Source: Candidatus Saccharimonadota bacterium (GTDB lineage: Bacteria; Patescibacteriota; Gracilibacteria; Absconditabacterales; Absconditicoccaceae). Taken from it: a DNA stretch of 32,000 nt. The translations under genes and the position numbers were made by a program. This document shows, piece after piece, positions 4,529 to 31,243 of this stretch (positions are counted from its first letter, which is position 1; each line of letters starts with the position of its first letter). The stretch lies in contig CP006913.1 in assembly GCA_000503875.1 (NCBI GenBank), positions 120,001 to 152,000 on the forward strand. Direction: 5' to 3'. A model generated the notes under the pieces. The model saw nothing but the letters and a program-made list of their open reading frames with translations. It was not told the origin of the DNA and ran no database searches.

Positions 4529-4614
4529 CGAAGAAAAAAATAAATAAAAGGTATACCTATATATATAGTATATTCAAAAAAATATTTTTTGCAAATCAAC
4601 CATAAATTCTGATT

Positions 4615-4872: not shown

Positions 4873-4880
<8 letters not shown>
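4846..4880 (+). other. 5' arm of the 23S rRNA processing stem (pairs with 7798-7833)
   Basis: atcatatattacatttttcaaaaaaacaataaatc is nearly the exact reverse complement of gatttattgttttttttgaaaaatgtaatatgtgat at 7798-7833. This gives a helix of about 35 bp enclosing the 23S, an RNase III-type substrate. Confidence 0.85.
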
Positions 4881-7805
<2,925 letters not shown>

Positions 7806-7907
7806 GTTTTTTTTGAAAAATGTAATATGTGATGTTGTTGTATATAGTTTCTAGCAGATTCTATTGTATTCGAAGAGCGGTTTTATATACTAAAACCCGT
7901 CGATTTA

Positions 7908-8037
<130 letters not shown>

Positions 8038-8082: not shown

Positions 8083-8086
8083 TTTT

Positions 8087-9580
<1,494 letters not shown>

Positions 9581-13532: not shown

Positions 13533-13577
13533 ATGGTGCGTAATTGACTACGCATCATTTATTTTTTGTTTTTTTGG
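13533..13577 (+). promoter_or_regulatory. Leader hairpin plus U-rich tract immediately upstream of the RRM protein start codon
   Basis: A 10-bp stem atggtgcgta (13533-13542) / tacgcatcat (13549-13558), loop attgac, followed by ttattttttgttttttt and then ATG at 13581. Confidence 0.6.
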
Positions 13578-13580
13578 TTA

Positions 13581-13910
13581 ATGGAAGAAAATTTTGTTAT
13601 CAGTCAGACAAAACTATTTGTCGGAGGACTAGATTGGAGTATCAGAGGTAAAGACCTCAACGAAGAATTCTCTAAATTTGGTGAAGTAGTATTTGCTAGA
13701 GTAAATCTAGATAGAGAAAACAGAAACAGAAGTAAGGGATTTGGTTTCGTAGTATTTGCAAACCCAGAAGACGCTGCAAAAGCACAAGCTGAAATGAACA
13801 ATAAAGAAGTAAAAGGAAGAGCTATTAGAGTAGATTTCGCAAAAGAAAATCCTGAAAAAATGAACAAAGAACATGCAAATGGAAACGAATCAGAAGCAAT
13901 TGCTGAATAA
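13581..13910 (+). CDS. RRM-domain RNA-binding protein (109 aa)
   Basis: RNP2 is LFVGGL and RNP1 is KGFGFVVF. No TGA codons. I prefer ATG at 13581 over the TTG at 13566 used by the ORF track. Confidence 0.88.
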   Translation: MEENFVISQTKLFVGGLDWSIRGKDLNEEFSKFGEVVFARVNLDRENRNRSKGFGFVVFANPEDAAKAQAEMNNKEVKGRAIRVDFAKENPEKMNKEHANGNESEAIAE

Positions 13911-13937
13911 TTAAAATATAGTATTCATATATACAAA

Positions 13938-13971
13938 ACATCTTTACACTAGTTGTAAGGGTGTTTTTTTT
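13938..13971 (+). terminator. Intrinsic terminator of the RRM gene
   Basis: An 11-bp stem acatctttaca / tgtaagggtgt (two G-U pairs), loop ctagt, then a T-tract. Confidence 0.8.
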
Positions 13972-13976
13972 ATGTC

Positions 13977-14004
13977 TTGAAAGTATAAGAAAAAAGAATA
14001 TGAT
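13977..14004 (+). promoter_or_regulatory. Candidate promoter of the structured RNA / RNHCP leader
   Basis: ttgaaa (13977-13982), 16-nt spacer, tatgat (13999-14004). Confidence 0.55.
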
Positions 14005-14010
14005 AAATCT

Positions 14011-14158
14011 ACGACTAAAGGGTTAGTAACGGTTAAGAATCACTTCTTCGTCCTTTACTCTGGAGGCCGAGAAATCTCTAGTCCCAGACTAGAGTGAGCC
14101 ATCCACCTTACGTATTGGAGAAAAACTTGATTGACTACGGCTCTTTGGTTTTTTTTGT
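14011..14158 (+). ncRNA. Candidate structured RNA (sRNA or riboswitch-like leader), class not recognised
   Basis: It lies between a promoter-like element and a U-tract (14149-14158) and is noticeably more GC-rich than its flanks. It has a perfect 8-bp hairpin ctctagtc-cca-gactagag (14076-14094), extended by tggaggc (14061-14067) / gcc-a-tcca (14098-14105). A closing helix joins ctaaagggtt (about 14016-14025) to ggctctttgg (about 14139-14148). Confidence 0.5.
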
Positions 14159-14173
14159 TCAGAAAAATATTCC

Positions 14174-14485
14174 ATGAAAAAAATAAACGAATCATTTATT
14201 TGTACTCATTGTGGCAAAGAAATTGCTCAAGCAGCCAAGACATGTAGAAATCACTGTCCCAGCTGTTTTTGTAGTATACACGTAGATGCTAATATTCCAG
14301 GGGACAGAGCAGCGGGTTGCGATTCAAAAATGTTTCCTGTTGATTATAAACTCCTTAATTCTGATTATAAAATTCTTTTTCAATGTGTGAAATGTGGCAA
14401 ACAACATTGGAATAAAAGAGCTATTGATGACGAAATTACAGCTTTGCCAGAACTAATTAAAGCGTATAAAAGATTATTTAACTAA
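14174..14485 (+). CDS. RNHCP domain-containing zinc-ribbon protein (103 aa)
   Basis: Literal CRNHCPSC motif plus CTHCGK and CVKCGK cysteine pairs. Uninterrupted ORF with a TAA stop. Confidence 0.85.
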   Translation: MKKINESFICTHCGKEIAQAAKTCRNHCPSCFCSIHVDANIPGDRAAGCDSKMFPVDYKLLNSDYKILFQCVKCGKQHWNKRAIDDEITALPELIKAYKRLFN

Positions 14486-15941: not shown

Positions 15942-16925
15942 TTATTTTTTTAAAATCAAATCAAAATGAACAGGAATCGCTGCCTCAAAAGCTACAGGAT
16001 TCTCACTAAAAAGATCCCAGAAACTGTATTTCCAACAATGCAAAAAGATATGTTTAAGTTTTACTTGTTCTAGAAGAAGTCTATTGATTCTTGGATGTCC
16101 ATACAACATATCTCCAAGTACAGGGAACCCCGCATCGGCCAAATGCACTCTAATCTGATGCATTCTTCCTGTTTCGATATGTACTTTTACCAAAGAAATT
16201 GGTCATAGAATCGGATGTTGAAATATTTTTCGAACCTCACAATGGGTAGTTGATTCTTTTCCTTCTTCGTCTTCGATGTCACTTACTACAGTTTTGCCTC
16301 TTTGAAATTTAGTGCTAAATATTTTTTTGAGAGGTTTGTGCAGAGAAAGTTGTCTGGGAAAACGGCCTACAACTACGGCAAGATACTCTTTCTGGATTTC
16401 TCTTTTTCTGATAATCTCGTTGATATATTGCAGAGAATTATACGTTTTCCCAGCAATCAACACGCCAGAAGTTTCTTTGTCCAATCTATATCAAAACGAA
16501 GGATTGAAGGTCCCTCCTGTTGCGGGAATATACGCGCGAAGCAAGTCATGCATACTGCGTTGTTTGTGTTCATTGTCTGATGGATGAATGCTAATTCCTG
16601 TTGGTTTGTTGAAAACAAGCCAGTTATCATCTTCAAAAAGAATCAATGATTTTACATAATTCACATCGATAGGTAATGATTTTTTGACAGCTGGTTTTTT
16701 ATCTGCATCTTTTCCTTCAAAAAAAGCATCGTCAATTTTGATAACATCTCTATTGCGAACTCTATAATCTTCTTTTGATTTTTTGCCATTTACCGTGATT
16801 TCTCTATTTCTAATTCCACGATAAATATCAGCAAGAGCAATTCCTGGCTGCATTTTAAAATATTTTCTCAAAAATCTATCAAATCTTTGATCGTGATTGG
16901 AACTATCTATAACAATTTCTTTCAT
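15942..16925 (-). CDS. RluA-family pseudouridine synthase with N-terminal S4 domain (RluC/RluD-like, 327 aa)
   Basis: Three track ORFs in one frame are joined by TGA. Catalytic motif is YRLDKETSGVLIAGK. The C-terminal HQIRVH motif is present. Confidence 0.88.
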
Positions 16926-29716: not shown

Positions 29717-31243
29717 ATGGAAAAAGTACTCTTAGTCATCCTTGATGGATTTTGAATAAACACGAAAACTCCAGAAGAAAATGCAATTATACAAGCAAAA
29801 ACACCAACGTTCCATGCTTTGTTTTCTGATTTACATACCAAACTAGATGCTTCAGGAAGAGCTGTTGGTTTACCAGATGGACAGATGTGAAATTCCGAAG
29901 TAGGGCATATGACTATAGGAACAGGTAGAATTATTAAACAAAATTTAGTAGCCATCGAAGATATGATCGATGATGGAAGTTTTGGTAAATTACCTAGTTT
30001 TTTAAATGGAATAGAGCACTGTAAAAAGAATAAATCAAATCTTCATATTCTTCAATTATTTGGTTCGGGTGGTGTACATGCTATGGATTCTCACCTCAAA
30101 AAAATATTACCATTAATTCCCAAAGATATCAATGTTTATCTACATCTTTTTGCTGATGGAAGGGATTTGGAACCAAAGTCTGCCGCAGCTTATATGCAAG
30201 AATTTGAAACATATTTAGAACAATTTCCCAATGTAGTTATTGCTTCTTTGTCAGGGAGATATTACGGAATGGATAGAGATAATAATCGAGAAAGAGTTCA
30301 AAAATCATATGATGAAATTATGTTTGGTCAATTACAAACGAATGATTTACCAAGCGAATATATAGCAAAATCTTACGAAAAAGAATTAACAGATGAATTT
30401 TTGATTCCCGTAAGTTTTATGGATGGAGAACAAATAGAGGATGGAGACGCTATATTCTTTTTGAATTTCAGGTCAGATAGAGCGAGACAAATGACGCAAG
30501 CATTGGTTGCTTCAATGAATCCAGAAAAGACAAAAAATTATATTGATCGTAATTCCAAATTTATGACCAAATCAATTAGAAATATTTATTTGGCTACAAT
30601 GACAAAATATTATAAAGAATATGACGGAAATGTTTTTGTAAAGGCATTTGATATCAAAAATACTTTGGGTGAAGTAGTATCTAGTAATGAAAAAAAGCAA
30701 CTCCATGTTGCAGAAACAGAAAAGTTTGCCCATGTTACCAAATTTTTTAACGGAGACAAACAAATTGTTTATAATGGAGAAAAAGATATTTTGGTTCCTT
30801 CCCATAAAGTAGCTACTTATGATTTAGATCCAGAAATGTCAGCACAAGAAATTTATGATCAACTTATTGAAAATATAAAATCATATGACTTTACCATAGT
30901 AAATTTCGCCAATTGAGATATGGTAGGGCACACAGGTATACTTCCAGCAGCAGAGCAAGCAGTTAAAAAATTAGATACAATCACCAAAAATTTAATAGAT
31001 TTCTGTAAAAAAAATACAATCCATCTTTTGATCACTGCGGATCATGGAAATTGTGAAGAAATGTGAACATTAGAAATTCCAAAAACTGCTCATACAACAA
31101 ATTTGGTTCCTTTTTGGTATATTATCAACGGTAAAACTCAAAAAACAAAAGCAACAGGTGGCTTATCTGATATAGCTCCTACAGTACTAAAACTTATGAA
31201 TATTGCTATTCCAAAAGATATGACAGGAAAATCTTTAGCATAA
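29717..31243 (+). CDS. gpmI: 2,3-bisphosphoglycerate-independent phosphoglycerate mutase (508 aa)
   Basis: Reads [24 protein letters not shown] (TGA at 29888-29890), FADGRD, and HG-NCE near the C-terminus. TAA at 31241-31243. Confidence 0.93.

Follow-up and report, generated by a model that had tools for sequence, protein, structure and literature searches.

The stretch of DNA analysed here, referred to as the window, covers 32,000 nucleotides (nt) of a Candidatus Saccharimonadota bacterium placed in the Absconditabacterales (contig CP006913.1, positions 120,001 to 152,000 of the forward strand), and the element under study is a predicted structured RNA encoded on its + strand at 14011-14156. 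Immediately downstream, as a first-pass annotation of the sequence had already stated, lies a gene for an RNHCP zinc-ribbon protein of 103 amino acids, which starts at 14174 (14174-14485, +; Pfam PF12647, E = 1.3e-23). The upstream neighbour encodes an RRM-domain RNA-binding protein (13566-13910, +; Pfam RRM_1, E = 1.3e-20), and a terminator scan placed the end of this gene at a terminator of its own (13935-13967, +), separate from the RNA. The first-pass annotation had described the element as an unclassified RNA that behaves like a riboswitch or attenuator of RNHCP. Our analysis indicates that it is very likely a divergent, shortened 6S RNA gene (ssrS) of the Absconditabacteria (candidate division SR1) that is missed by curated thresholds.

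The promoter proposed at first reading was recovered at 13977-14004 (+), with TTGAAA as the -35 hexamer (13977-13982), a 16-nt spacer and TATGAT as the -10 hexamer (13999-14004), together giving 10 of 12 consensus matches. The predicted transcription start of the RNA falls at approximately 14010-14013, and no further + strand promoter was found by the promoter scan between 14005 and 14173. The segment is also GC-rich, as had been remarked, with a G+C content of 43-47% over 14000-14149 vs. 22-30% in both flanks. When folded on its own, it forms one long rod (-42.5 kcal/mol, z = -2.17 vs. shuffles). This value beats chance by just a modest margin and is, for one sequence alone, only suggestive, the real support coming from the comparison with relatives described below.

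The rod is closed by stem P1, in which GACUAAAGGGUU (14013-14024) pairs with GGCUCUUUGGUU (14139-14150), and it continues through P1b (GUA, 14026-14028, with 14136-14138), P2 (CGGUUAAG, 14030-14037, with CUUGAUUG, 14126-14133; taken from the fold and from a cognate-duplex test) and P3, which joins the pyrimidine strand UUCUUCG (14044-14050) to the purine strand UGGAGAA (14116-14122). A central bubble then opens. Its 5' strand, UCCUUUACUC (14051-14060), is unpaired in the minimum-energy fold and is the presumed template of a product RNA (pRNA), and its 3' strand (14105-14115) starts with A-C-C-U-U (14105-14109), the counterpart of the '-10-like' ACCU of 6S RNA. Beyond the bubble, the apical arm consists of P4, where UGGAGGCCG (14061-14069) pairs with UGAGCCAUCCA (14095-14105) around bulged A residues, a 6-nt A/U-rich bulge (14070-14075) and P5, a perfect 8-bp hairpin (CTCTAGTC, 14076-14083, with GACTAGAG, 14087-14094) with the 3-nt loop CCA. 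The 3' strands of P3, P2, P1b and P1 occupy 14116-14150 and include a near-invariant ACGGC. A run of 8 T (14149-14156) right behind the closing stem would provide a terminator-like 3' end, which the consensus terminator scan did not report because the stem is long-range. The 8-bp hairpin (14076-14094), the second helix that extends it and the closing helix next to the U-tract had all been noticed in the first-pass annotation, and each was found again; likewise, the view of the element as a separate structured RNA that has its own promoter and a terminator-like end in the window is supported, the RNA measuring about 145 nt and lying on the + strand.

Following BLAST, a covariance model (R1) was built from 14 relatives. 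It matched the window at 14012-14155 with 133.4 bits and gave matches in 51 of the 80 SR1 genome loci that were fetched through RNHCP, invariably on the same strand as RNHCP. A second sample, free of this ascertainment through RNHCP, was drawn by scanning metagenome contigs with a pattern of conserved RNA bases alone; this yielded 80 loci, 70 of which matched R1. Each locus holds a single copy of the RNA, as does the 32-kb window. Counted from the start predicted by the promoter through the last base of the closing stem, the family members are 144-150 nt long.

Structure statistics were obtained from an alignment (A6) of 97 distinct sequences. In the modelled helices, 91.1% of the cells are paired vs. 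76.2% in shuffles, and none of 500 shuffles reached that value. Two-sided changes were observed at 27 of the 37 pairs, and the covariation score was 0.506 compared to 0.14 at most when the partners were slid by 1-3 columns. The first-pass annotation had called for a test of conservation and covariation in relatives, and both were found.

At the level of single helices, the closing stem P1/P1b carries two-sided changes at 11 of 15 pairs with 93.4% of its cells paired, P3 does so at all 6 modelled pairs, and P5 shows compensatory changes at all 7. In P4, the bases of GG..CC and GAGC.A.CCA are invariant. The closing stem also contains an invariant U-G pair (96/96), which assigns the RNA to the + strand. 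P2 is too variable to be aligned by sequence and was thus assessed by duplex energies, with a median of -7.1 kcal/mol for the cognate strands vs. -3.5 kcal/mol for non-cognate strands from distant relatives; in 60 of the 97 sequences, P2's own partner beat at least 90% of the non-cognate ones. Its sequence differs among relatives and its pairing is maintained. Since single-sequence minimum-energy folds gave a clean single rod in just 44 of 97 cases, with noisy loop sizes, alignment-based measures were used instead. The RNA is a genuine conserved family of Absconditabacteria.

The promoter is conserved along with the fold. A TTGnnn-N16-18-TAnnnT promoter, usually TTGAAA with a 16-nt spacer, precedes the RNA in 87 of 95 distinct loci, and in 74 of them the -10 ends 5-7 nt ahead of the first base of the closing stem.

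The central bubble measures approximately 10 x 12 nt, its 5' strand having 9-13 nt (mode 10) and its 3' strand 10-14 nt in all 97 sequences. The first five positions of the 3' strand are strongly constrained, with A in 97/97, C in 91/97, C or U in 96/97, U in 84/97 and C or U in 97/97 sequences. G is almost absent from the opposite side, as the 5' bubble strand is pyrimidine-rich with 4% G and the P3 pyrimidine strand contains G in none of the 97 sequences. Further, the start of the 3' bubble strand (CYUY) can pair with the 3' purine strand of P3, with a mean energy of -3.6 kcal/mol vs. -1.1 kcal/mol in shuffles; this release-hairpin potential reaches -2 kcal/mol or lower in 65 of the 97 sequences, and RNAalifold predicts the same pairing. 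It corresponds to the release hairpin of the E. coli type that has been described for 6S RNA (PMC8876501).

This conserved alternative pairing is different from the one proposed in the first-pass annotation, in which ttcttc would pair either with aagaa just upstream or with ggagaa further downstream. The second of those pairings stands, as the conserved rod contains the pairing of ttcttc (14044-14049) with ggagaa (14117-14122); the aagaa/ttctt hairpin did not hold up, being weak (approximately -1 kcal/mol) and not family-wide.

A rod whose central bubble is restricted in size is characteristic of 6S RNA. We determined the relation of the family to known RNAs by narrow Rfam scans, in which slices of approximately 160 nt were compared with 4227 families. 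RF00013 (6S/SsrS) was the top family in four of the five members scanned, and the alignments were full-length (model positions 1-187) and coextensive with the R1 match. The window copy matched at 14009-14155 (+) with 20.5 bits (E = 0.014), and three relatives gave higher scores, namely 24.0 bits (L007, E = 0.0021), 27.0 bits (L037, E = 0.00039) and 30.9 bits (L010, E = 4.6e-5). The first-pass description of the RNA as unclassified and without a match to 6S RNA is not supported, given this top-ranking, full-length hit.

The alignment also places the conserved bases where they would be expected in a 6S RNA. The 6S consensus letters CU, GU.CG, GGG, CCCACCU, CGGC and GG match columns that are invariant in the SR1 family: CU and GU.CG belong to the 5' strand of the closing stem and CGGC..GG (ACGGC...GG of the family) to its 3' strand, while GGG lies in the 5' strand of the apical stem and CCCACCU at the point where the apical stem meets the 3' bubble strand, so that P4 aligns with GGG ... 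CCCA. In E. coli 6S RNA, whose ssrS sequence was verified against 5,426 genomes, the same apical stem/bubble junction reads CAUUCACCUUG (also given as CAUUCACCUU). It is here that the '-10-like' recognition element of 6S RNA has been placed (PMC8876501).

Several results weigh against the assignment to 6S RNA. Every RF00013 score (20.5-30.9 bits) is well under the gathering score of that family (46.4 bits), and the match is thus not one at the curated threshold; the clear known-family hit that the first-pass annotation had named as a counter-argument exists in substance, with RF00013 on top, and fails at that threshold. The slice of another family member (L013) gave no 6S match in the Rfam scan. 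Neither a scan of the whole window at the gathering threshold nor one of 341 nt (13880-14220) with E up to 10 returned anything over the RNA, the leader and PyrR matches of the latter being confined to the terminator that belongs to the RRM gene upstream; the 6S match shows only in the slices of approximately 160 nt because the filters relax there. The E-values are, in addition, calibrated on random sequence, and somewhat raised scores may be obtained with any rod-like RNA of fitting length. R1 run with filters off against the verified E. coli ssrS found no meaningful match, a failure that is uninformative either way because R1 is too lineage-specific. In the window copy, the release hairpin has just 3 bp and is weak. 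Lastly, the adjacency to RNHCP described below (approximately 85% of loci) could point to a functional link for which an ordinary housekeeping 6S RNA would have no need.

Size is a further point of this kind. 6S RNAs range from about 150 to 200 nt, and the SR1 RNA lies slightly under that range. With 144-150 nt and an apical arm of approximately 17 bp, it is short of the size of approximately 200 nt given for 6S RNAs (PMC8876501).

Other stable RNAs were also considered. Signal recognition particle (SRP) RNA, transfer-messenger RNA (tmRNA), RNase P, Y RNA and retron RNA were compared by their consensus features and appeared in no Rfam scan; SRP RNA was ruled out by the variable apical loop.

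Compared with the 6S RNAs of Escherichia coli (ssrS) and Bacillus subtilis (6S-1), the SR1 RNA has in common a rod with closing stem, central bubble and apical stem, conserved bases at matching places in the closing stem and around the bubble, and a predicted capacity of the 3' bubble strand to form a hairpin with the downstream helix's 3' strand. The '-10-like' ACCU(U) opens the 3' bubble strand as it does in E. coli (PMC8876501). The surroundings are alike as well, as fau/ygfA lies 20 nt downstream of E. coli ssrS on the same strand and RNHCP lies 17 nt past the U-tract of the SR1 RNA, although the downstream partner differs, being RNHCP in SR1 and 5-formyltetrahydrofolate cyclo-ligase in E. 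coli. Differences are found in size: the SR1 RNA has approximately 145 nt against 184 nt for E. coli 6S RNA, it lacks approximately 30 nt of the apical arm of the Rfam consensus, and its 5' bubble strand is approximately 6-8 nt shorter than that consensus in the alignments of the window copy and of L007. Its almost G-free presumed template strand and its scores under the Rfam gathering threshold also set it apart from known 6S RNAs.

A shortened RNA of this kind has an engineered precedent. When reduced to its bubble flanked by two short arms, B. subtilis 6S-1 RNA still binds polymerase, templates pRNA and is released in vitro (PMC8876501), and a natural 6S RNA of approximately 145 nt is therefore mechanistically plausible. 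The minimal 6S-1 RNAs are laboratory truncations with approximately 10-fold lower affinity, whereas the SR1 RNA is natural and conserved and retains a full-length closing stem.

Lineage-specific 6S-like families and the Ms1 RNA of Actinobacteria offer a second parallel, since they are, like the SR1 RNA, rod-shaped and obtain low scores or no match with the general 6S model. In length, Ms1 far exceeds the SR1 RNA. It has been described as structurally related to 6S RNA and is reported to bind the polymerase core, not the holoenzyme (PMC9130861). Ms1 and the 6S-like families associate with polymerase; the SR1 RNA, known here from sequence, keeps the 6S consensus bases.

The SR1 RNA is probably transcribed from its own sigma-70-type promoter, judging by the positional conservation of that promoter. 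By analogy with the 6S RNAs of E. coli and B. subtilis, a working cycle can be proposed for it. The rod would then imitate an open promoter and fill the active-site cleft of the housekeeping RNA polymerase holoenzyme, as in E. coli and B. subtilis, with the A-C-Y-U-Y that opens the 3' bubble strand serving as the putative '-10-like' element and P3 as the presumed 'downstream helix' that is unwound by pRNA synthesis. When nucleotides are plentiful, the polymerase may use the 5' bubble strand together with the pyrimidine strand of P3 as template for a short pRNA rich in purines. The P3 purine strand (GGAGAA) thereby freed would pair in most family members with CYUY of the 3' bubble strand, and the resulting collapse of the bubble could release the polymerase. 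RNHCP itself is probably transcribed by read-through from the RNA gene and is a neighbour, not a target of ligand-dependent control. RNHCP lies 17 nt past the U-tract, no separate promoter was detected for it, and the layout resembles that of E. coli ssrS; read-through is the simplest explanation.

An alternative is that the RNA acts in trans and merely resembles 6S RNA, being part of another ribonucleoprotein, for instance with RRM or RNHCP bound at the invariant bulged-A helix P4. The gene neighbourhood speaks for some association of this type. The RRM gene is the usual upstream neighbour of the RNA (approximately 35 of the 51 RNA-bearing genome loci), the order RRM - RNA - RNHCP recurs, and RRM stays beside the RNA in three loci (L037, L093 and L145) where RNHCP is far off or absent nearby; P4 and its bulges are invariant, and the Rfam 6S scores are sub-threshold. 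We nevertheless regard this alternative as unlikely, since the invariant positions are those of bona fide 6S RNAs, including CCCACCU at the apical stem/bubble junction, and many loci have the RNA without RRM or without RNHCP. RRM proteins of this type are, moreover, general bacterial RNA-binding proteins (NCBIfam 'RNA-binding regulator', a match below the cut-off of that model), and RNHCP has no detectable relative of known function. Given the recurring neighbourhood, the RNA may have a further or another protein partner.

Less probable still is a reading close to that of the first-pass annotation, namely that the RNA is a cis-acting leader of RNHCP (a riboswitch, protein-binding leader or attenuator) which senses a ligand or the RNHCP protein itself, with the closing stem and U-tract terminating transcription before RNHCP. 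The window does look the part: the RNA lies before the gene on the RNHCP strand, its closing stem is followed by 8 T, no separate promoter is seen for RNHCP, and in the region of the two P3 strands, pyrimidine and purine, some pairings exclude one another. In the RNA-ascertained metagenome loci with enough flank, RNHCP is directly downstream in approximately 55 of approximately 66 (~85%), and the distance between the two, which ranges from 6 to more than 600 nt, is 6-150 nt in most loci. The family as a whole behaves differently. A T-rich tail behind the closing stem is present in just 41 of the 95 loci, no conserved antiterminator or start-site-sequestering element was seen in the family, and one clade carries an ORF-bearing insert of approximately 460 nt between the RNA and RNHCP.

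The same RNA, with the same promoter and fold, also precedes the atp operon in four loci (L037, L044, L098 and L112), a rluD-like gene in another group (L087) and other genes elsewhere (L093, L080). Conversely, it is absent upstream of RNHCP in approximately 25 SR1 loci with adequate upstream sequence and in all five Parcubacteria loci that were inspected for a wider linkage of 6S RNA to RNHCP in the Candidate Phyla Radiation (CPR). The unbranched rod with its symmetric bubble matches the 6S consensus, and no riboswitch match was obtained over the RNA at E up to 10 in the five narrow Rfam scans. Unlike riboswitches and attenuators, the SR1 RNA has neither a conserved expression platform nor a branched ligand pocket. 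The varied downstream genes, the conserved promoter and the presence of a U-tract in under half of the loci together disfavour a riboswitch or attenuator of RNHCP.

Finally, the notion that the segment encodes a protein, prompted by a 91-codon ORF (13972-14247, +) that appears once TGA is translated as sense, can practically be dismissed, as the homologues differ by 1- and 2-nt indels, the stem substitutions are paired and compensatory and not third-position changes, the ORF overlaps the well-supported RNHCP frame, and the invariant U-G pair, like the conserved promoter 5-7 nt ahead of the stem, is in keeping with an RNA gene.

The RNA is best explained as a compact variant within the known 6S kind, and represents neither a new riboswitch class nor a regulatory RNA of a new class. 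6S RNA regulates RNA polymerase in almost all bacteria. In the literature searched, we found no report of a 6S RNA in Absconditabacteria, other CPR bacteria or Patescibacteria, and since the curated threshold misses the SR1 RNA, the family would go unannotated wherever the Rfam threshold is applied. A covariance model built from the approximately 100 sequences would permit its annotation across the lineage. With approximately 145 nt, a template bubble of 10 nt and an apical arm of 17 bp, the SR1 RNA would be a natural counterpart of the engineered minimal 6S RNA, and its likeness to known 6S RNAs suggests that ultra-small, host-dependent bacteria still retain polymerase sequestration.

With regard to the RNHCP protein, Pfam gave the RNHCP domain alone and NCBIfam just weak zinc-ribbon matches below the cut-off. 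A sequence search of the PDB returned nothing below E = 0.9 and Foldseek, likewise run on the PDB, nothing better than E = 0.18, for an AlphaFold model that is confident (predicted local distance difference test, pLDDT, 83.8). The literature search yielded no paper on the domain, the term occurring only in unrelated chemistry papers.

RNHCP genes without the 6S-like RNA are often found directly 3' of a tRNA gene on the same strand. A tRNA-Lys gene precedes RNHCP in four SR1 loci (L043, L055 and L059, near 4886-5001, and L057, 2771-3044) and a tRNA-Pro gene in two Parcubacteria loci (L202, 2913-3001, with a gap of 14 nt, and L204, 2838-3001); a CCA-adding-enzyme gene is near RNHCP in three Parcubacteria loci. 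A stable-RNA gene 5' of RNHCP thus spans two CPR lineages, being the 6S RNA in most Absconditabacteria, tRNA-Lys in other SR1 and tRNA-Pro in Parcubacteria, and RNHCP seems to ride behind stable-RNA genes. It is conceivable, though doubtful, that the RNA and RNHCP form a functional module in which RNHCP is expressed by read-through from strong promoters of stable RNAs and acts on those RNAs or on RNA polymerase. In variants of this idea, RNHCP might take part in 3'-end maturation of 6S RNA and tRNA, or might be a polymerase-associated factor that aids a minimal 6S RNA without the long '-35-like' arm.

The insert of approximately 460 nt was observed in L013 (4541-5000), and similar downstream repeats or a gap of approximately 460 nt are present in L045, L053, L066, L072, L073, L061 and L156. 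Its ORF has approximately 115 codons and, by eye, the product is like the four-helix-bundle proteins of 23S rRNA intervening sequences. The upstream flank of the insert consists of 8-nt tandem repeats (CTAAATGA / AAACGAYN; TRF, 4538-4577), and the downstream flank of apparent reverse complements (CGTTT...) of these. Members of this clade have no U-tract behind the RNA. In another relative (L063), a short tandem repeat, ggtctttagtctat..., occupies 1848-1990 downstream of the RNA, where other relatives carry the U-tract.

As for the wider setting, the G+C content of the window is 33%. Under the standard bacterial code its ORFs are interrupted by TGA, and reading TGA as sense gives long fused genes, for example at 54-2900, 15942-16925 and 29717-31243. 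This fits the use of TGA as a sense codon in the code-25 lineages Absconditabacteria and Gracilibacteria, and the closest relatives of the RNHCP protein carry the names candidate division SR1, Absconditabacteria or Gracilibacteria, placing the organism in that CPR lineage. The rRNA genes of the window, all on the + strand, are arranged in the order 23S (4873-7807), 5S (7915-8031) and 16S (8085-9580), with a gap of 53 nt between 5S and 16S, unlike the customary order 16S-23S-5S.

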